IMG/VR virus record: IMGVR_UViG_2574180019_000005
DNA length: 8,042 nucleotides
Strand: one strand, 5' to 3'
Source: a virus
Taxonomy: Duplodnaviria; Heunggongvirae; Uroviricota; Caudoviricetes
Shown: positions 1 through 8,042 of the stretch, piece after piece
Position numbering within the stretch: the stretch's first letter is position 1
Layout: each line of letters starts with the position of its first letter
Program-made: the position numbers and the translations under genes
Notes under the pieces: model-generated
Database searches by the model: none
The model's input: the letters and a program-made list of their open reading frames with translations, nothing else
What the model was told of the DNA's origin: nothing

Positions 1-177
1 AGGGGAGGCTTTTGGTGTTTTTCCCTGCCGCTCATCACGTAATTGTTTCACCCATCGCGTCATTGTGGAAAGGCCGACATCCATAGCGCTGGCTGCATCT
101 GCCACGGTGTAATTCTGGTCAACGACCAGTTGAGCGGATTCGCGTTTAAACTCTGCGCTGAAATTTCTTTTTTTCAT
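1..177 (-). CDS. IS911-like OrfA (transposase N-terminal HTH protein), partial; runs off window
   Basis: Mirror copy of the right-end orfA; reverse-strand ATG at 175..177. Translation [59 protein letters not shown] matches IS911 OrfA as I recall it. Confidence 0.8.
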
Positions 178-249
178 TATGGCACCTGTGTTGTTCTGAG
201 GTGAGCATATCACCTCTGTTCAGGTGGCCAAATTCAGTAAACCACTTCA
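1..249 (-). mobile_element. IS3-family (IS911-like) insertion sequence, left-end fragment; IS body continues off the window to the left
   Basis: Bases 1..249 are the exact reverse complement of 7793..8041. The element end is TGAAGTGG (reverse strand, terminal base at 249), a TG-initiated IS3-family terminus, and it carries the start of an orfA reading frame. Confidence 0.8.
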
Positions 250-283
250 ATTCACCCCTACAGAGAGCAAAAGAGAAACGCCG

Positions 284-865
284 ATGAACAACTCATGGTG
301 GCAGGAACTAATGCATTTTTTCCTGCAAGGAATGACACTTAAACAGTTGATTCATATGCTAATCATCCTGATCATATTGATTATTGTTATGCCGGTAAGC
401 GTAAAAGAATGGATAAACCTGCATAGTCCAGAAATCCTTCCTCATTACTGGATGTATTACATCCTGTTGTTTTGCGTTAGCTATGTGCTTAACGGCGTTG
501 TTAATTCCGCTTATCACGCTGTGACTGAAAGAATTGAGGTATTCGCTGCTCAGAAGCGCAAATCTAAAGAAGAAAAATATGTGCAAGATTTGTTTGATTC
601 GTTAACTCTTGGAGAAAGAGCGTATTTGGCATTCGCTGTAGCCGCTAATAACCAGCTACAAACGGAAAAGGGCGCTCATGAATCAATTTCATTGCTCAAA
701 AAAGGACTCCTCGTTCGAAGGCCTCCTGCTGTTGGATATCCTGATACCGACCGTTTCGTTATCCCTGAAAGCTATAGACATGAGTGCTACATTAGGTTTG
801 CCGGGAAGGCAGACAGCCTTATGGATGAACTTATCGCTCAGGATAAGCATGGCAAAAACAAGTAA
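284..865 (+). CDS. sieB: Superinfection exclusion protein B-like membrane protein
   Basis: The ORF-track start at 224 lies inside the IS end; the first ATG in phage DNA is 284, giving 193 aa. Two strongly hydrophobic segments (LIHMLIILIILIIVMPV; YWMYYILLFCVSYVLNGVV). It is convergent with N, the position and size of sieB in lambda and P22. Confidence 0.6.
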   Translation: MNNSWWQELMHFFLQGMTLKQLIHMLIILIILIIVMPVSVKEWINLHSPEILPHYWMYYILLFCVSYVLNGVVNSAYHAVTERIEVFAAQKRKSKEEKYVQDLFDSLTLGERAYLAFAVAANNQLQTEKGAHESISLLKKGLLVRRPPAVGYPDTDRFVIPESYRHECYIRFAGKADSLMDELIAQDKHGKNK

Positions 866-881
866 TTAGCAAATGAATTTA

Positions 882-1154
882 TCATCTCGCCGTCAGTTGT
901 TTTGATTTCCGGTAGCCTGCCGCGTAAAGAGCTACGTTCGGAAGACAAGTTGAACCTTCATATTTTCTGGTCAACGTTGTCAGAGTTATCACTTCTGCTC
1001 TCATTGCTGGTTTGAGCTTGCATTGCAAGACCACTCGTGAAGGGGTTGGCCTGTGTAGCTTGTCGGAGCTGATCGCCTCCTGACTTTGCAGATTTGCGCG
1101 ACGAGCTCTACGGCGAGAAGCTGCGGTGCCTTTAAATTCTGTTTTTCTGGACAT
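882..1154 (-). CDS. N: N-family transcription antitermination protein (P22 gene 24-like)
   Basis: Internal ATG at 1154 with GGAGG 5 nt upstream on the reverse strand. N-terminal arginine-rich motif GTAASRRRARRA; C-terminus LPNVALYAAGYRKSKQLTAR resembles the P22 gp24 C-terminus as recalled. Lies between sieB and nutL/pL as in lambdoid phages. Confidence 0.75.
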   Translation of the reverse strand: MSRKTEFKGTAASRRRARRANLQSQEAISSDKLHRPTPSRVVLQCKLKPAMRAEVITLTTLTRKYEGSTCLPNVALYAAGYRKSKQLTAR

Positions 1155-1265
1155 GGATTCCTCCCGAATAAACTTTGGCGATGCAATCTCGAAGCTCCTC
1201 CTGAGACGGTTGCTTCGGCATTGCATCCCACAGCTTATGTGGTTGGGTGATCTGGCTTTTCAGCC

Positions 1266-1297
1266 ACGTAGTCGAGAGTCGACGTTGTTTAAAGAGC
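1266..1297 (-). promoter_or_regulatory. Candidate nutL (boxA GCTCTTTAAACAA plus boxB-like hairpin GTCGA-CTC-TCGAC)
   Basis: Reverse strand reads GCTCTTTAAACAACGTCGACTCTCGACTACGT. BoxA matches the lambdoid consensus (CGCTCTTA-like). A perfect 5-bp-stem hairpin follows. It sits about 110 nt upstream of N, downstream of the putative pL. Confidence 0.45.
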
Positions 1298-1343
1298 CTG
1301 CCAGTCTGTTCCATTTGGCTTCCAGCGTCCTGCTGACGGTTAA

Positions 1344-1386
1344 ATAGTACGATATGTACTTTACAAGATCAATACAATTTGTTGTA
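1344..1386 (-). promoter_or_regulatory. Candidate pL promoter with overlapping OL operators
   Basis: On the reverse strand: -35 TTGATC (1367..1372), 17-bp spacer, -10 TACTAT (1344..1349). Perfect palindrome AGTACGATATGTACT (1346..1360) overlaps the spacer and -10. A second palindrome TACAA-TTTG-TTGTA lies at 1373..1386. The 11-mer AAAGTACATAT (promoter-relative) is shared with the pR region. Confidence 0.4.
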
Positions 1387-1558
1387 AGTTGGCGTGGTTT
1401 TTTATAACGCTTTGTATTTAATAGTGTTGTTTTTTAGCGTGGATGTATTGCCTCGGCGATGTAAGGAGAGATCAGAATTGCGTGGTTTAGTGGGTTGCAT
1501 CTATTTATTTTTCAATAAATATAATTGGTTATGTGTTTTTAGGTGGGCGAACGTGAGG

Positions 1559-1587
1559 CAAAGAAAACCCGGCGCTGAGGCCGGGTT
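1559..1587 (-). terminator. Intrinsic terminator ending the leftward cI operon
   Basis: Directly after the stop of the 250-aa gene: 6-bp GC stem CCCGGC/GCCGGG (1568..1573 / 1580..1585) with a 6-nt loop, followed on the reverse strand by UUUUCUU (1561..1567). Confidence 0.6.
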
Positions 1588-1590
1588 GTA

Positions 1591-2343
1591 TTATGCTGCA
1601 AGTCTCTTAACCCAAGTCTCTCTTTTGGAGAATGGTAGAACTTGGCTTGATTCATGGAAGAGTAAGGAGAGTTGTTGCATTTGATCACCAATTGCTTCGC
1701 TGTCTATAACAACAAATCTGTTGTTATACTCCTCACTTGAAGCTTTAAGATCAATTAGTTTCCCAAGCAATGAGTAAGCACTATTCCAGCTTCCTCCGTG
1801 TTTCACGCTTGATGTAAAAACGTATTTAGGTATGTCGGTTTTTATTGTTACAGGGACGGTAATTTGATGTCCACTCAAGCCATATACGTTTTCACGAAGA
1901 GAAAGTGCGTCTCTAAGCTCTGTGTGATATAGATAATCAATAACCATACTTTCAAACTTTTCAGCTTGAACTGGCTGATACCAGTCTAACGACAAAGTTG
2001 ATGCGAGTATACCAGCTCTAATTATGTTCGATGTAATCGCACCGACATCCTTTTCTGTTGCCCAAGCAATGATTTCTCCTCGAGCATTGAGTTCTGCGCC
2101 TTCTTTAAGCAGTAATTGTCGTATCTCATCAAGTCGTTTTTTGGTAAGCGAGATCCCTCTTGCCTCCATATTCATTAAGGCATCGCATCTGTCACTAACT
2201 AAATACCTACCATTGACTTCACGGATAAAGGCACCGACATGCTCTCCATCATCACAGTAAGTGAATGGACTGATAATTCTCAAGGTCTTGCCTATTGGAT
2301 GGCATTCGAAACCTAGTTGTGAGATCACTGTTGAGCACATCAT
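1591..2343 (-). CDS. Hypothetical protein (250 aa), distal gene of the cassette at the rex position; candidate defence or exclusion component
   Basis: Long ORF on the same strand as cI. Its ATG (2341..2343) overlaps the stop of the upstream gene in an ATGA arrangement. Followed by a terminator. I recognise no motifs. Confidence 0.75.
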   Translation of the reverse strand: MMCSTVISQLGFECHPIGKTLRIISPFTYCDDGEHVGAFIREVNGRYLVSDRCDALMNMEARGISLTKKRLDEIRQLLLKEGAELNARGEIIAWATEKDVGAITSNIIRAGILASTLSLDWYQPVQAEKFESMVIDYLYHTELRDALSLRENVYGLSGHQITVPVTIKTDIPKYVFTSSVKHGGSWNSAYSLLGKLIDLKASSEEYNNRFVVIDSEAIGDQMQQLSLLFHESSQVLPFSKRETWVKRLAA

Positions 2344-2897
2344 ATTCCAAACCCCATTTGCCCCGACTCATCTTCAAGCGGTAAAGGTATTCTCCCAGAG
2401 TAAGTTATGTTCAGATGTTTACAGAAGTAATTCCAATACCCTACCAGGTCATCTGGGTTTATGTCATCTTCGATTGGAAACGCTATTCTATCACTATAGT
2501 ATCCAGCTTCTTCATAGTATACATGGTAGTGAGCACCGTAAATGATATCTTGGTACTTCGGATGATCGACCTTGTAACTATTCGTGTGTTTGTCAAAGTG
2601 ATAGGTATCTACCGCGAAAACCCTCTTGTTATGATAGAAAGCAATAATATTTATTTTAGGGTAAGAAATCGGGTCATCAGGTTCTGAATCCTGATCTGGT
2701 TTCCATTTCAGTTCAAACTTTAGCCCTTGTATAGGTATACAATCCTCATCCAAGGGGATGATATGGGCTTGTAGCCACATATCAGAGCGACTTGGTTTCT
2801 GTTTCCATTTAACGCCAGAAAAGTTAACTATTTTTTTACAATAAAGTACTTTATCAACTTCTACTTGGCTTGGCTGATAATCATCTATTTTTGCCAA
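2340..2897 (-). CDS. Hypothetical protein (185 aa), proximal gene of the cassette at the rex position; candidate defence or exclusion component
   Basis: ORF begins 40 bp downstream of the cI stop. The first in-frame start is TTG (2895..2897), just after an in-frame TAA; the next ATG is at codon 40. Protein is rich in Asp/Glu/Tyr/His (for example HFDKHTNSYKVDHPKYQDIIYGAHYHVYYEE). Very AT-rich DNA. Confidence 0.7.
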   Translation of the reverse strand: MAKIDDYQPSQVEVDKVLYCKKIVNFSGVKWKQKPSRSDMWLQAHIIPLDEDCIPIQGLKFELKWKPDQDSEPDDPISYPKINIIAFYHNKRVFAVDTYHFDKHTNSYKVDHPKYQDIIYGAHYHVYYEEAGYYSDRIAFPIEDDINPDDLVGYWNYFCKHLNITYSGRIPLPLEDESGQMGFGI

Positions 2898-2936
2898 TGT
2901 TTACCGCCCTGTAAATTGTAGATAAAAGTGGTTTCA

Positions 2937-3596
2937 TCACCCAAACGTCTCTTCAGGCCATTGGCTGGCGATAACTTTCCCCACAACGGAACAACTCTCA
3001 TTGCATGGGATCATTGGGTATTGTGGGTTTAGTGGCTGTAGAAACACCTGACCGCTATCCCTGATCAGTTTCTTGAAGGTAAATTCATCACCACCAAGTC
3101 TGGCTATGCAGAAATCGCCGGGCTCAACAGCTTGCTCAGGGTCAACCAGAATTAACATCCCGTCAGGAAAGCTGGGTTTGGAACCTGTTGGTGCGGTCAT
3201 TGAGTTACCTTCAACCTCAAGCCAGAATGCAGAGTCACTGGCTTTTTTGGTTGTGCTTACCAATCTCTCCGCATCGCCTTTGGTAAAGGTTCTGAGTTCT
3301 GGAGAGAACATCCCAGCCTGAACATGAGAAAAAACAGGGTACTCATATTGTTTTTTAACTGGGGCCGATGAGTATTCGCCAACAGGTGAAAATGTCCCGT
3401 CGTGGTTGAATGATATGTTATCAATACCAAGGTATTTAAACACCACACCAATATCACTAAGAGATGGATGACGAGATCCGCGCAACCAGTGTCCAATCCC
3501 ACCCTGCGTCATACCTAGCTCTTCGGCTAACTTCTCTTGAGTTATGCCGAGCTCTTTCATTCTGGATCTAGCCAGTTCATACCATTTCATTTTCAT
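2937..3596 (-). CDS. cI: Phage repressor cI (LexA/S24 family) with a lambda-type C-terminal domain and a non-lambda N-terminal HTH domain
   Basis: From [20 protein letters not shown] to the C-terminus QWPEETFG the protein matches lambda cI as recalled, including the Ala-Gly autocleavage site (VQAGMF) and the S24 domain. The N-terminal HTH ([23 protein letters not shown]) is different. Start is ambiguous (ATG at 3596 or 3590; the ORF track uses TTG at 3638). Confidence 0.9.
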
Positions 3597-3707
3597 GTCC
3601 TTATTATTACGCTCTGTACTGGAACCATCCATGCACAATGTGTATTTTTACTTGTATTCGCAAAGTACATATTGTATTTTTTTATTCGTGTTTACTATGG
3701 AGGGCAT
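3597..3707. promoter_or_regulatory. OR operator region with candidate pR (and divergent pRM)
   Basis: Candidate pR: -35 TTGTAT (3652..3657), 17-bp spacer, -10 TATTTT (3675..3680), GGAGG 4 nt before the cro ATG. AAAGTACATAT (3662..3672) ends 2 bp before the -10, the same spacing as in the pL candidate. TGTATT occurs three times (3641, 3653, 3673). Confidence 0.45.
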
Positions 3708-3923
3708 ATGAGCAACCTACGAAAATATCGAGAGTCACTGAATATCTCTCAAACAACACTTGCTAAGGCAGTTGGATGCACACAGGGAGCTATCGGACAT
3801 TGGGAATCTGGTCGTCGCTTCCCAGACCTTAAAACATGCCGTGCTCTTGTTGCGTGCCTAAACAAGTTAGGCGCAAAAGTCAGTCTTGATGACGTGTTCC
3901 CGCCGGAACACAAAGCCGCTTAA
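3708..3923 (+). CDS. cro: Cro-like HTH (XRE-family) repressor
   Basis: 71 aa, HTH TQTTLAKAVGCTQGAIGHWESG. Divergent from cI across the operator region with a GGAGG ribosome-binding site. The ORF-track start at 3537 would overlap cI and OR, so I take ATG 3708. Confidence 0.8.
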   Translation: MSNLRKYRESLNISQTTLAKAVGCTQGAIGHWESGRRFPDLKTCRALVACLNKLGAKVSLDDVFPPEHKAA

Positions 3924-3933
3924 TAAGCGGATC

Positions 3934-3966
3934 CGCTCTTTGTAACAACGGACATTCGTCCTACGT
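3934..3966 (+). promoter_or_regulatory. Candidate nutR (boxA CGCTCTTTGTAACAA plus boxB-like hairpin GGAC-ATTC-GTCC)
   Basis: Located just after the cro stop. BoxA and the flanks ACAACG ... CTACGT match the nutL candidate, while the hairpin stem sequence differs. Confidence 0.5.
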
Positions 3967-4064
3967 CGCTGAAAAGCGAGTTCCAAGATATCTGACCAAC
4001 TAAGGCCATATGCGTTTCCACGCATACCTTTCAACTAACTATTCACTATTGGAAATCTTAAGAA

Positions 4065-4361
4065 ATGGAAAGAACAAGTTACAGCAAACTATCACAGCGT
4101 GACGTTGATCGCGCAGAAACAGATTTACTTATCAATCTGTCAGCTATTACCCAGCGCGGTCTGGCAAAGATGATTGGCTGTCATGAATCGAAGATAAGCA
4201 GAACGGACTGGAGATTTATTGCTTCGGTCTTGTGTGCTTTCGGAATGGCATCAGACATCAGTCCGATTAGCAGGGCTTTTAAGTATGCGCTTGATGGACT
4301 CACCAATAAAAAACGCCCGGCGGCAACCGAGCGTTCTGAACAAATCCAGATGGAATTCTGA
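4065..4361 (+). CDS. cII: Transcriptional activator cII (hybrid: lambda-type C-terminus, divergent N-terminal and DNA-binding part)
   Basis: C-terminal LTNKKRPAATERSEQIQMEF matches lambda cII as recalled; the N-terminal two-thirds differ. Position between cro/nutR and O. Confidence 0.85.
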   Translation: MERTSYSKLSQRDVDRAETDLLINLSAITQRGLAKMIGCHESKISRTDWRFIASVLCAFGMASDISPISRAFKYALDGLTNKKRPAATERSEQIQMEF

Positions 4362-4382
4362 GGTCATTACTGGATCAATCCA
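4305..4382 (-). ncRNA. oop: OOP antisense RNA (with terminator to), overlapping the cII 3' end
   Basis: Plus-strand sequence AATAAAAAACGCCCGGCGGCAACCGAGCGTTCTGAACAAATCCAGATGGAATTCTGAGGTCATTACTGGATC is the reverse complement of lambda oop RNA as I recall it, with a few substitutions. The GC hairpin plus U-tract lies at the 3' end (about 4305..4330). Confidence 0.7.
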
Positions 4383-4393
4383 CAGGAGTCATT

Positions 4394-5293
4394 ATGACAA
4401 ATACAGCAAAAATACTCAACTTCTGCAGAGGTAACTTTGCCAAACAGGAGCGTAATGTGGCAGATCTCGATGATGGTTACGCCAGACTATCAAATATGCT
4501 GCTTGAGGCTTATTCAGGCGCAGATCTGACCAAGCGACAGTTTAAAGTGCTGCTTGCCATTCTGCGTAAAACCTATGGATGGAATAAACCAATGGACAGA
4601 ATCACCGATTCTCAACTTAGCGAGATTACAAAGTTACCCGTCAAACGGTGCAATGAAGCCAAGTTAGAACTCGTCAGAATGAATATTATCAAGCAGCAAG
4701 GCGGCATGTTTGGACCAAATAAAAACATCTCAGAATGGTGTATCCCTCAAAACGAGGGAAAATCCCCTAAAACGAGGGATAAAACATCCCTCAAATTGGG
4801 GGATTGCTATCCCTCAAAACAGGGGGACACAAAAGACACTATTACAAAAGAAAAAAGAAAAGATTATTCGTCAGAGAATTCTGGCGAATCCTCTGACCAG
4901 CCAGAAAACGACCTTTCTGTGGTGAAACCGGATGCTGCAATTCAGAGCGGCAGCAAGTGGGGGACAGCAGAAGACCTGACCGCCGCAGAATGGATGTTTG
5001 ACATGGTGAAGACCATCGCGCCATCAGCCAGAAAACCGAATTTTGCAGGGTGGGCTAACGATATCCGCCTGATGCGTGAACGTGACGGACGTAACCATCG
5101 CGACATGTGTGTACTGTTCCGCTGGGCATGCCAGGACAACTTCTGGTCCGGTAACGTGCTGAGCCCGGCCAAACTCCGCGACAAGTGGACCCAGCTCGAA
5201 ATCAACCGTAACAAGCAACAGGCAGGTGTGACAGCCTGCAAACCAAAACTCGACCTGACAAACACTGACTGGATTTACGGGGTGGATTTATGA
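4394..5293 (+). CDS. O: Replication initiation protein O (lambda type)
   Basis: 299 aa, MTNTAKILNF...DWIYGVDL, essentially lambda O as recalled. Contains the ori iterons. Stop overlaps the P start (ATGA). Confidence 0.95.
   Translation: MTNTAKILNFCRGNFAKQERNVADLDDGYARLSNMLLEAYSGADLTKRQFKVLLAILRKTYGWNKPMDRITDSQLSEITKLPVKRCNEAKLELVRMNIIKQQGGMFGPNKNISEWCIPQNEGKSPKTRDKTSLKLGDCYPSKQGDTKDTITKEKRKDYSSENSGESSDQPENDLSVVKPDAAIQSGSKWGTAEDLTAAEWMFDMVKTIAPSARKPNFAGWANDIRLMRERDGRNHRDMCVLFRWACQDNFWSGNVLSPAKLRDKWTQLEINRNKQQAGVTACKPKLDLTNTDWIYGVDL
4742..4870. repeat. ori-lambda: four O-binding iterons followed by an AT-rich unwinding region
   Basis: Iterons ATCCCTCAAAACGAGGGAA (4742), AATCCCCTAAAACGAGGGAT (4761), ATCCCTCAAATTGGGGGAT (4786), ATCCCTCAAAACAGGGGGA (4809), then the A-rich stretch AAAAGACACTATTACAAAAGAAAAAAGAAAAGATTATT. 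Confidence 0.9.
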
Positions 5294-5991
5294 AAAACAT
5301 CGCCGCACAGATGGTTAATTTTGACCGTGAGCAGATGCGTCGGATCGCCAACAACATGCCGGAACAGTACGACGAAAAGCCGCAGGTACAGCAGGTAGCG
5401 CAGATCATCAACGGTGTGTTCAGCCAGTTACTGGCAACTTTCCCGGCGAGTCTGGCTAACCGTGACCAGAACGAACTGAACGAAATCCGCCGCCAGTGGG
5501 TTCTGGCTTTCCGGGAAAACGGGATCACCACAATGGAACAGGTTAACGCAGGAATGCGCGTAGCCCGTCGGCAGAATCGACCATTTCTGCCATCACCCGG
5601 GCAGTTTGTTGCATGGTGCCGGGAAGAAGCATCCGTTATCGCCGGACTGCCAAACGTCAGCGAGCTGGTTGATATGGTTTACGAGTATTGCCGGAAGCGA
5701 GGCCTGTATCCGGATGCAGAGTCTTATCCGTGGAAATCGAACGCGCACTACTGGCTGGTTACCAACCTGTACCAGAACATGCGGGCCAATGCGCTGACTG
5801 ACGCGGAATTACGACGCAAGGCTGCCGATGAACTGACCTGTATGACAGCGCGAATTAACCGTGGTGAGACGATACCTGAACCAGTAAAACAACTTCCTGT
5901 CATGGGCGGCAGACCTCTAAATCGTGTTCAGGCGCTGGCGAAGATCGCAGAAATTAAAGCTAAGTTAGGACTGAAAGGAGCAAGTGTATGA
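5290..5991 (+). CDS. P: Replication protein P (DnaB helicase loader, lambda type)
   Basis: 233 aa, MKNIAAQMVNFDREQMRRIANNMPEQYDEKPQ..., matches lambda P as recalled. Translationally coupled to O and ren. Confidence 0.95.
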   Translation: MKNIAAQMVNFDREQMRRIANNMPEQYDEKPQVQQVAQIINGVFSQLLATFPASLANRDQNELNEIRRQWVLAFRENGITTMEQVNAGMRVARRQNRPFLPSPGQFVAWCREEASVIAGLPNVSELVDMVYEYCRKRGLYPDAESYPWKSNAHYWLVTNLYQNMRANALTDAELRRKAADELTCMTARINRGETIPEPVKQLPVMGGRPLNRVQALAKIAEIKAKLGLKGASV

Positions 5992-6278
5992 CGGGCAAAG
6001 AGGCAATTATTCATTACCTGGGGACGCATAATAGCTTCTGTGCGCCGGACGTTGCCGCGCTAACAGGCGCAACAGTAACCAGCATAAATCAGGCCGCGGC
6101 TAAAATGGCACGGGCAGGTCTTCTGGTTATCGAAGGTAAGGTCTGGCGAACGGTGTATTACCGGTTTGCTACCAAGGAAGAACGGGAAGGAAAGATGAGC
6201 ACGAACCTGATTTTTAAGGAGTGTCGCCAGAGTGCCACGATGAAACGGATATTGGCGGTATATGGAGTTAAAAGATGA
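5988..6278 (+). CDS. ren: Ren protein (lambda type)
   Basis: 96 aa, MTGKEAIIHYLGTHNSFCAPDVAALTGATVTSINQAAAKMARAG..., matches lambda Ren as recalled. Start overlaps the P stop. Confidence 0.85.
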   Translation: MTGKEAIIHYLGTHNSFCAPDVAALTGATVTSINQAAAKMARAGLLVIEGKVWRTVYYRFATKEEREGKMSTNLIFKECRQSATMKRILAVYGVKR

Positions 6279-6303
6279 CCATCTACATCACTGAGCTAAT
6301 AAC

Positions 6304-6335
6304 AGGCCTGCAGGTAATCGCAGGCCTTTTTATTT
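6304..6335 (+). terminator. Intrinsic terminator between ren and ninB (tR2-like)
   Basis: 8-bp stem AGGCCTGC/GCAGGCCT (6304..6311 / 6320..6327), 8-nt loop, followed by TTTTTATTT. Confidence 0.7.
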
Positions 6336-6351
6336 GGGGGAGAGGGAAGTC

Positions 6352-6792
6352 ATGAAAAAACTAACCTTTGAAATTCGATCTCCGGCACATCAGCAAAACG
6401 CTATTCACGCAGTACAGCAAATCCTTCCAGACCCAACCAAACCAATCGTAGTAACCATTCAGGAACGCAACCGCAGCTTAGACCAAAACAGGAAGCTATG
6501 GGCCTGCTTAGGTGACGTCTCTCGTCAGGTTGAATGGCATGGTCGCTGGCTGGATGCAGAAAGCTGGAAGTGTGTGTTTACCGCAGCATTAAAGCAGCAG
6601 GATGTTGTTCCTAACCTTGCCGGGAATGGCTTTGTGGTAATAGGCCAGTCAACCAGCAGGATGCGTGTAAGCGAATTTGCGGAGCTATTAGAGCTTATAC
6701 AGGCATTCGGTACAGAGCGTGGCGTTAAGTGGTCAGACGAAGCGCGACTGGCTCTCGAATGGAAAGCGCGATGGGGAGATCGGGCTGCATGA
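6352..6792 (+). CDS. ninB: NinB (Orf) recombination mediator protein
   Basis: 146 aa, MKKLTFEIRSPAHQQNAIHAVQQILPDPTKPIVVTIQERNRSLDQNRKLWACLGD..., matches lambda NinB as recalled. Ribosome-binding site GAGGGAAG upstream of ATG 6352. Confidence 0.9.
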   Translation: MKKLTFEIRSPAHQQNAIHAVQQILPDPTKPIVVTIQERNRSLDQNRKLWACLGDVSRQVEWHGRWLDAESWKCVFTAALKQQDVVPNLAGNGFVVIGQSTSRMRVSEFAELLELIQAFGTERGVKWSDEARLALEWKARWGDRAA

Positions 6793-7316
6793 CTATCAAA
6801 TCAAATACGCCAGCACACGACAAGGACTGCTGGCAAACGCCGCTTTGGCTTTTTGATGCACTGGATATTGAGTTTGGATTCTGGCTGGATTCGGCAGCGA
6901 GCGACAAAAATGCTCTGTGCGCTCACTGGCTAACTGAGGACGACGACGCGCTCAATTCTGAGTGGGTAAGCCACGGTGCAATCTGGAATAACCCACCGTA
7001 CAGCAATATCAGGCCGTGGGTGGAAAAAGCCGCTGAGCAGTGTATACAACAGCGACAGACGGTAGTGATGCTTGTGCCAGAGGATATGTCTGTCGGATGG
7101 TTCAGCAAGGCTCTGGAGAGTGTTGACGAAGTTCGTATTATCACTGATGGACGGATTAATTTTATCGAACCATCGACAGGGCTGGAGAAGAAGGGAAACA
7201 GCAAAGGCTCCATGCTGCTGATTTGGCGACCGTTCATCAGTCCTCGACGGATGTTTACTACCGTATCCAAAGCGGCATTGATGGCGATCGGGCAGGGCGT
7301 CAGGAGGGCTGCATGA
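6789..7316 (+). CDS. Phage-type DNA N6-adenine methyltransferase
   Basis: 175 aa. Catalytic motif IV NPPY (WNNPPYSN), typical of amino-methyltransferases. ATG overlaps the ninB stop and the stop overlaps the ninE start. Sits where lambdoid prophages carry the small phage Dam-type methylase. Confidence 0.8.
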
Positions 7317-7489
7317 GACGACAGCGACGAAGCATCACCGACATAATCTGCGAAAACTGCAAATACCTTCCAACGAAACGCTCCAGAAATAAACGCAAGC
7401 TAATCCCAAAAGAATCTGACGTAAAAACCTTCAATTACACAGCCCACCTGTGGGATATCCGGTGGCTAAGATATCGTGCGAGGAAATGA
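7313..7489 (+). CDS. ninE: NinE protein
   Basis: 58 aa, [58 protein letters not shown], near-identical to lambda NinE as recalled. Confidence 0.85.
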
Positions 7490-7491
7490 CA

Positions 7492-7896
7492 ATGGATTAT
7501 TCACAGTTAAGTGATTTTGAAATTAACAGAATGGTAGGAGACATAATTTTTAAAGGCCTTTGGGCAAGTAAACCGGAAACATCAGGGAATAACACCAACA
7601 AATGGTATTACGGAAATGCTGATACAACTTTTGAGCCATTAAATCATTTGCCTGACTACTGCAATGATCCGAGCGCTTCATGGCCGATTATTGAGAAATA
7701 CAGGATTTCTATCTTAGACCAGTTAACTGAATGGTGTGTGGATGCAAAAGGCGTAAGCCCAATATTTGATACCAGACCTCTCCGCGCCGCCATGAAGTGG
7801 TTTACTGAATTTGGCCACCTGAACAGAGGTGATATGCTCACCTCAGAACAACACAGGTGCCATAATGAAAAAAAGAAATTTCAGCGCAGAGTTTAA
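7492..7896 (+). pseudogene. nin-region ORF of unknown function, interrupted by IS insertion at 7792/7793 (native part 7492..7792, tail read from IS DNA)
   Basis: ATG 7492 with GAGGA 7 nt upstream. The reading frame continues across the IS terminus TGAAGTGG at 7793, so the last 34 codons are IS-derived. Confidence 0.5.
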
Positions 7897-8042
7897 ACGC
7901 GAATCCGCTCAACTGGTCGTTGACCAGAATTACACCGTGGCAGATGCAGCCAGCGCTATGGATGTCGGCCTTTCCACAATGACGCGATGGGTGAAACAAT
8001 TACGTGATGAGCGGCAGGGAAAAACACCAAAAGCCTCCCCTA
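7793..8042 (+). mobile_element. IS3-family (IS911-like) insertion sequence, left-end fragment; IS body continues off the window to the right
   Basis: Terminus TGAAGTGGTTTACTGAATTTGGCCACC... followed by the orfA start. 7793..8041 is the exact inverted copy of 1..249. Confidence 0.8.
7865..8042 (+). CDS. IS911-like OrfA (transposase N-terminal HTH protein), partial; runs off window
   Basis: ATG 7865. [59 protein letters not shown]. Confidence 0.8.

Follow-up and report, generated by a model that had tools for sequence, protein, structure and literature searches.

In the laboratory hybrids lambda imm434 and lambda imm21, the immunity region is foreign, whereas the backbone and the replication genes are of lambda type. 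LexA regulates the SOS response of the host instead of phage immunity, and its N-terminal domain is a winged helix; like the repressor reported here, it also carries a Peptidase_S24 domain, an Ala-Gly site and a Ser/Lys dyad, and our protein matches LexA structures with an E value of ~2e-6. Phage lambda cI has the same two-domain architecture as our protein, with the Ala-Gly site, the Ser149/Lys192 dyad, a gene divergent from cro and three operators per side. According to the summary in PMC10742460, Fattah et al. 2000 described a VT2-Sakai CI with a lambda-like C-terminus and a divergent N-terminus. It has also been reported (PMC2629481) that the repressor of phage epsilon34 is ~80% identical to that of lambda in the C-terminal protease domain and ~50% identical to those of L, VT2-Sa and Nil2 in its N-terminal part; the same work proposed an epsilon34 operator consensus, WTACRAWWTGTAT, which resembles the operator core TACRnnnTGTA of the locus analyzed here. 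Lambda CI and VT2-Sakai-type CI have been placed in one clade (PMC8951638). The gene that we describe, its chimeric relation to lambda cI and its carrier phage are therefore already known from public records and the literature, and our study identifies this cI as a real, ordinary and widespread repressor allele, not a new hybrid.

We analyzed a stretch of 8,042 nucleotides (the window) from IMG/VR virus record IMGVR_UViG_2574180019_000005, assigned to the Caudoviricetes. Positions 247-7795 match the isolated phages ev017, ev207, PhiR57_1 and PhiR63_2 at 100% identity. The longer interval 1-7795 is shared, again at 100%, with a prophage carried by E. coli ATCC 25922 and its relatives, and at 99.9% with one in Nissle 1917. 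Since ev017 is classified as Jouyvirus ev017, that is, in a different genus, the element is not lambda with a substitution. The N-terminal domain of its repressor is found at 90% identity or more in ~63 phage records and the C-terminal domain at 95% or more in ~98, and P0001 stands for a protein cluster, formed at 90% identity, that comprises 1,686 sequences. The features of the gene are the following:

2937..3596, minus strand: cI prophage repressor, 219 amino acids plus stop (open reading frame list, Pfam, identity to the Stx1-phage protein, cI annotation of PhiR57_1)
3348..3596, minus strand: HTH_3 DNA-binding domain and linker, VT2-Sakai immunity type, codons 1-83
2940..3347, minus strand: cleavage-site region and S24 dimerization/autocleavage domain, lambda-type, codons 84-219
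3312..3317, minus strand: predicted RecA-stimulated self-cleavage site Ala94-Gly95, aligned with lambda Ala111-Gly112
3201..3203, minus strand: predicted catalytic nucleophile Ser132, equivalent to lambda Ser149, in the context EGNSMTA
3072..3074, minus strand: predicted general base Lys175, equivalent to lambda Lys192, in the context FTFKKLI
3261..3263, minus strand: Leu112 codon (TTG), Trp129 (TGG) in lambda, the sole amino acid difference in the C-terminal domain

The reading frame is intact, with a TGA stop at 2937-2939 and an ATG at 3596. Pfam assigns residues 11-58 to HTH_3 (E = 1.9e-10) and residues 87-209 to Peptidase_S24 (PF00717, E = 1.1e-28) over the full length of the profile. The protein thus shows the traits of the S24 lambdoid repressors (cI/c2), namely the HTH, the Peptidase_S24 domain, the Ala-Gly site and the Ser/Lys dyad. 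Three positions are candidates for the start codon: 3596, which falls in a column shared with many 219-residue homologues; 3590 (Met3), as annotated in the vB_SosS_Oslo homologue; or 3632, giving a form of 231 amino acids as in the RefSeq and PhiR57_1 annotations, which falls within the predicted operator OR2. The record of the Stx1-converting phage annotates a putative PRM -10 element immediately 5' of the ATG at 3596, so that a lambda-like leaderless transcript would result from this start.

Our BLASTP comparison of the protein with lambda cI (NC_001416; NP_040628) gave an E value of 8e-112. The two proteins agree at 135 of the 136 positions from Tyr84 to the end (99.3%), the one change being W129L in mature lambda numbering, and this part directly matches the solved lambda cI structures 3bdn, 8gmu, 2ho0, 1kca and 1f39. 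A preliminary description of this DNA had recognized the match to lambda cI through to the C-terminus, and the cleavage site and S24 domain that it named are both present. At the DNA level, the C-terminal domain (2936-3347) differs from lambda at 27 of 412 bases (93.4% identity); 26 of these differences are synonymous and one is non-synonymous, which gives Nei-Gojobori estimates of 0.37 for dS and 0.003 for dN (dN/dS ~0.008).

The N-terminal 83 residues compare very differently with lambda. They are 18 residues shorter than the lambda N-terminal domain, with 15 of 50 aligned residues identical (30%, pairwise E = 8e-8), or 20% in the multiple alignment; synonymous divergence is at saturation in the aligned 50-codon block (pS 0.82, nucleotide identity 43%), and no BLASTN similarity to lambda was found for the DNA of this part (3348-3596). 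The HTH segment is similar to lambda's MGMGQSGVGALFNG. Judged from these alignments, the cI N-terminal domain is a diverged homologue of the lambda N-domain with a different specificity. The preliminary description had spoken of roughly 90 N-terminal residues forming an unrelated HTH; the different specificity stands, but the segment is 83 residues long and belongs to the same Pfam family as its lambda counterpart, at the pairwise E value given above. Its description of a C-terminal part close to that of lambda and an N-domain that is not lambda's agrees with the 99.3% and 20-30% found. The wild imm-lambda phages HK97 and mEp332 are 98-100% identical by the N-domain comparison, and at 20-30% our repressor falls outside imm-lambda.

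The sequences around cI belong to the same non-lambda immunity type. The gene is divergent from cro, and the interval that separates the two holds three predicted 17-bp operators; a further set lies near N:

3605..3679: OR region, three 17-bp sites between cI and cro: OR1 3663-3679, OR2 3631-3647, OR3 3605-3621
1345..1419: OL region, three 17-bp sites: OL1 1345-1361, OL2 1370-1386, OL3 1403-1419
3708..3923, plus strand: cro, 71 amino acids, Pfam HTH_3, unlike lambda Cro
882..1154, minus strand: N antiterminator of Sakai/HK97 type, Pfam N_peptide

The OR sites have no mismatches to the putative operators annotated in the Stx1-converting phage (NC_004913) and the OL sites have zero or one; of the six, four match exactly and the other two have one mismatch each. 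The motif TACRNNNTGTA clusters at the OR and OL regions, whereas the lambda core is TATCACCGC..., and no lambda-type operator (the TATCACCGCCAGTGGTA family) was found in the whole window with up to three mismatches allowed. Cro is identical to that of the Stx1-converting phage over 71 of 71 residues and of a different fold family from lambda Cro, N is identical to its Stx1-phage counterpart at 89 of 90 residues, and cI itself is identical over its full length (219/219, 100%). The cro, N and operators had been taken from the start as non-lambda, and they are so. The stretch from cI through OR and cro to cII is 96.5% identical in DNA to the VT2-Sakai/Stx1 group; the N-terminal cI DNA is 99.6% identical to the Stx1-converting phage and 98.8% to VT2-Sakai. 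Taken together, the Stx1-type cI, Cro, N and operators indicate that the immunity region is of the VT2-Sakai type and that its chimeric cI was inherited as part of this type. The cI genes of VT2-Sakai (Sp5), the Stx1-converting phage, Nil2 and the non-Stx phages ev017, ev207, 2B8, 2G7b and PhiR57_1 are the same gene. A sigma-70 promoter scan of the window gave hits no commoner than in shuffled sequence and failed to single out PR, PL or PRM; the promoter positions are those of the Stx1 phage annotation only. An Rfam scan of the window gave no family above threshold, so that oop or nut RNAs are not supported by a curated model.

The preliminary description considered this phage a natural immunity hybrid with the recombination joint inside cI, near the linker. 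We therefore set out the mosaic structure of the window as follows:

882-1588: N, nutL and OL, Sakai-type, 93% identical
1466..1587 (122 bp), minus strand: block resembling lambda (90% identity) that includes a terminator-like hairpin (1566-1587)
1591..2897, minus strand: two-gene cassette (open reading frames) at the position of lambda rexA/rexB, downstream of cI
2936-3347: cI C-terminal domain, 93.4% lambda-like, 98.3% Sakai-like
3348-4296: Sakai-type DNA unlike lambda, with the N-terminal part of cI, OR, cro and most of cII
4065..4361, plus strand: mosaic cII, Pfam Phage_CII, Sakai-type to 4296 and lambda-identical from 4297 (last 20 residues)
4297..6792, plus strand: lambda-type block (cII 3' end, O, P, ren, ninB), with 97.3% identity to lambda over 4299-6792
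7320-7486: ninE, 94.6% identical to lambda

The block at 1466-1587 probably marks the end of the cI operon. The two-gene cassette between this block and cI has a weak DUF6978 match and a DUF1828 match in Pfam, with PADLOC matches to PDC-M24A (E = 5e-4) and PDC-M24B (E = 5e-10); it was found in neither lambda nor VT2-Sakai when compared with these two, and by its position and domains it is probably an accessory or defense cassette expressed in the lysogen. On the other side, the lambda type ascribed to O, P, ren, ninB and ninE is borne out, and O carries four ori iterons at 4742-4828. The combination of non-lambda immunity with lambda-type replication genes is thus genuine. It distinguishes this phage from the Stx phages with the same cI, which have HK022/DnaB-type replication genes, a different cassette downstream of cI and a cII C-terminus that, unlike the one here, is not that of lambda.

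Such an arrangement might have arisen by a fresh crossover with lambda in the cI linker, everything on the C-terminal side being lambda-derived as in imm434. Both the sharp homology edge in the linker and the nearby O, P, ren and ninB, lambda-type at 97.3%, fit this account, but two observations make it very improbable. First, the degree of divergence: the DNA of the C-terminal domain is 93.4% identical to lambda, with a dS of 0.37, and 98.3% identical to both VT2-Sakai and the Stx1-converting phage, whereas in the true lambda-like block ren shows no synonymous change and dS is 0.08-0.16 in O, P and ninB, so that synonymous divergence from lambda is several-fold higher in the cI domain than in the replication block. 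Second, the extent of the similarity: it vanishes one base beyond the cI stop, there is no rexA or rexB, and the identical chimeric protein occurs in Stx phages with non-lambda replication genes. The chimera was thus not formed in this phage. In a three-way alignment the switch from Sakai-like to lambda-like sequence falls at 4296/4297, in codon 78 of cII, and by this alignment it is here, and not in cI, that the immunity module joins the lambda replication module; compared with lambda imm434 and imm21, the immunity module spans N to cII codon 78 and its right joint lies in cII. The proposed joint in cI therefore holds as a homology edge at codon 83/84, but not as the junction to the lambda replication genes. 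On these divergence values, the C-terminal domain of cI is an older patch of similarity to lambda, enclosed in an immunity region of non-lambda type, and not an imm434-style left edge.

The edge within cI nevertheless requires an explanation of its own. Nucleotide similarity to lambda begins abruptly at codon 83/84 (TATGAGTACCCT...), within the inter-domain linker. It could be argued that no recombination took place, and that cI and lambda cI descended vertically while the DNA-binding domain diversified rapidly and purifying selection kept the C-terminal domain from changing; the very low dN/dS of that domain (0.003/0.37) agrees with this, as does the general tendency of N-terminal domains in this family to diverge faster than C-terminal ones (48% against 80% for Oslo). 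However, dS passes from 0.37 to saturation across a single codon boundary, where nucleotide similarity is lost. A step of this kind in synonymous divergence at the linker is impossible under vertical evolution, which indicates that the two halves differ in history and that the linker is the recombination joint. Strict vertical descent also has to face the incongruence between the N-terminal and C-terminal trees of cI and the occurrence of one C-terminal type on four N-terminal classes, with a breakpoint elsewhere in one of them; we regard it as highly unlikely.

The reading that we favor, with high confidence, is that this cI is a repressor of VT2-Sakai/Stx1-type lambdoid prophages whose C-terminal module is shared through an old horizontal exchange. 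Its identity to the Stx1-phage cI, and the greater closeness of its C-terminal DNA to Sakai than to lambda, indicate that the intragenic joint is old and inherited. A search covering 5.8 billion proteins found this type of C-terminal domain, with identities of 76% and above, on four N-terminal classes:

Sakai-type N-terminal domain, 75-95% identical
epsilon34/Oslo-type, 41-54% identical
lambda-type, 63-99% identical, in proteins annotated to Klebsiella aerogenes, Citrobacter koseri, Yokenella regensburgei, Intestinirhabdus alba and Salmonella enterica
HTH_19-type, less than 25% identical to the Sakai-type or lambda-type

In P0107, a member of the HTH_19-type class, identity to lambda begins only at about AFWLEVEG, which implies a different breakpoint. 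The repressors of the Salmonella phages epsilon34, g341c, SPN9CC and vB_SosS_Oslo are full-length homologues with the same N- and C-terminal types as ours, ~48-52% identical in the N-terminal part and ~80% in the C-terminal part; given this N-terminal divergence, their immunity specificity is probably different.

The direction of the exchange was also considered. In a comparison of five proteins, the window protein has its closest N-terminal partner in Oslo (48%), and lambda has its own in TL-2011c (56%), while by the C-terminal domain the window protein pairs with lambda (99%), followed by Oslo (80-81%) and then TL-2011c (60-65%). Taken alone, this comparison suggests that lambda was the recipient: the C-terminal domain would be native to the Sakai/epsilon34/Oslo lineage, and lambda cI would be the chimera that acquired it. 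The argument is that Oslo is the nearest to the window by its N-terminal domain and the nearest non-lambda protein by its C-terminal domain, and that TL-2011c, the nearest N-terminal relative of lambda in the phage collection, reaches only 65% in the C-terminal domain. Against it, lambda-type N-domains (63-70%) are joined to C-domains of 79-85% in proteins of the larger database such as P0049, P0063 and P0113. Both lineages thus have full-length relatives at similar depth, which led us to downgrade the reading of lambda as recipient to one that is quite possible without being probable. Since the domain sits on at least four N-terminal classes, a donor in the lambda/Sakai exchange cannot be named. 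The initial notion that a lambda C-terminal domain had been joined to another DNA-binding domain is accordingly right about the domain-level mosaic, but presumed a direction for a module that at least four N-terminal classes carry: 'lambda C-terminal domain' is a historical label that says nothing on origin. The lambda-type C-terminal domain is a promiscuous module across Enterobacteriaceae prophages, found with at least four DNA-binding classes.

An IS3-family element interrupts the prophage beside sieB and perhaps in ninX too. A 3-bp overlap at the IS junctions was considered as an anomaly and rejected, the left one being an ordinary 3-bp ATT target duplication. The right-hand junction, in ninX, was found in none of the complete E. 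coli genomes checked; it is perhaps a second insertion or a contig end in a repeat. The source prophage with its IS insertions may be defective as a phage, though its cI is intact. One could go further and take cI for an inactive remnant in a decaying, IS-ridden prophage, with no repressor function, pointing to these insertions and to the VT2-Sakai record, which has a TAG stop at cI codon 31. Our cI, however, does not have this stop; its reading frame is identical to that of ev017, ev207 and PhiR57_1, isolates that form viable particles, every catalytic and cleavage residue is present, and the dN/dS shows strong constraint. We consider the loss of repressor function extremely improbable.

The mechanism can be proposed from the near-identity to the lambda cI C-terminal domain and from the mechanism of the family. 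The HTH_3 domain would bind the six predicted 17-bp pseudo-palindromic operators, three in OR and three in OL, with a core of about TACRnnnTGTA, and binding would repress PR/cro and PL/N. The S24 C-terminal domain would provide dimerization and dimer-dimer cooperativity. Upon DNA damage, RecA-stimulated self-cleavage at Ala94-Gly95 by Ser132/Lys175 would separate the two domains and lead to prophage induction; RecA-dependent induction is to be expected in view of the conserved Ala-Gly site and Ser/Lys dyad.

From the operator differences, it is plausible that a lysogen would not be immune to lambda. This prediction is contradicted by Fattah et al. 2000, who, according to the summary in PMC10742460, reported that lambda and VT2-Sakai are cross-immune. 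In vitro, lambda CI binds VT2-Sakai operators weakly, with an apparent KD of 3.7-6.4 uM against 0.21-3.07 uM on its own sites (PMC10742460). The C-terminal domain is 99% identical to that of lambda and occurs at 79-89% identity on at least three other N-terminal classes, which would make mixed oligomers possible. It is conceivable, although we think it rather unlikely, that repressors of different immunity in one polylysogen form mixed dimers, tetramers or octamers and thereby couple the stability and induction of hetero-immune prophages. If so, the coupling would act through negative dominance or shared cooperativity, it might underlie the lambda/VT2-Sakai cross-immunity in the summarized report of Fattah et al., and the conservation of the C-terminal domain (dN/dS ~0.008) might reflect selection on the shared interface.

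This cI is a clean textbook case of domain-level mosaicism, in which the specificity domain has been swapped at the linker and the self-cleaving oligomerization domain is near-invariant. Its immunity type is common to the Stx phages of E. coli O157:H7 and to the prophages of ATCC 25922 and Nissle 1917, and this sharing may bear on superinfection immunity between ATCC 25922 or Nissle 1917 and Stx phages.

Our analysis of the repressor encoded on the minus strand at 2937-3596 shows that its lambda-type C-terminal domain is under extreme purifying selection, far stronger than that acting on O, P or ninB. The comparison of positions 2940-3347 with lambda identified 26 synonymous changes and a single non-synonymous one, which corresponds to a dN/dS of about 0.008, against values of 0.07 for O, 0.11 for P and 0.04 for ninB in the same window. 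The domain has also been joined to a third class of N-terminal domain, of the HTH_19 type and less than 25% identical to both the lambda and the Sakai types, in P0053, P0107 and their relatives, which were recovered in a search of 5.8 billion proteins for similar C-terminal domains. The C-terminal domains of these proteins are 79-89% identical to that of lambda. In P0107, from E. coli, identity to lambda is present only from about AFWLEVEG onward, which places the recombination joint of this protein beyond the cleavage-site region, on its downstream side.

In the cI of VT2-Sakai, the deposited sequence (AP000363.1) carries an in-frame TAG at codon 31 (GMT*GG), and for this reason the cI annotated there is limited to a C-terminal fragment of 169 aa. 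The same codon encodes Gln in the Stx1-converting phage and in the window.

The cII gene (4065-4361) is also a mosaic: residues 1-77 are of the Sakai type, and the final 20 residues are those of lambda cII. The joint at 4296/4297 is the true crossover point at which, in this phage, the immunity module meets the replication genes of lambda type. Two features were identified among the replication and nin genes:

4742-4828: within the O gene, four ori iterons of the lambda type, resembling ATCCCTCAAAACGAGGGA and spaced 20-24 bp apart
6789-7316: a gene for a Dam-family N6-adenine methyltransferase, between ninB and ninE

The iterons lie inside O in lambda as well. The methyltransferase gene takes the position that ninC and ninD have in lambda.

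The two ends of the window (1-249 and 7793-8041) form a perfect 249-bp inverted repeat. Each copy derives from an IS3-family element (ISEc52/IS911-like), of which it comprises the left end (TGAAGTGG...) and the first part of orfA. The copy on the left (1-249) is genuine: E. coli ATCC 25922 carries it between ral and sieB, with a target duplication of 3 bp (ATT). The junction on the right, within ninX, was absent from all 5,426 complete E. coli genomes. Either the source strain alone has a second insertion at this point, or a contig ends here within the repeat.

Downstream of cI, we identified the following cassette:

1591-2897, minus strand: two co-oriented genes 3' of cI, at the position of lambda rexA and rexB

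Their products are a 185-aa protein with a weak match to DUF6978 and a 250-aa protein with DUF1828; they matched the PADLOC candidate defence system PDC-M24, with E-values of 5e-4 for component A and 5e-10 for component B. Because lambda-like sequence borders it on either side, in the form of the C-terminal domain of cI and a terminator block of 122 bp, the cassette looks like a swappable slot that would be expressed in the lysogen.
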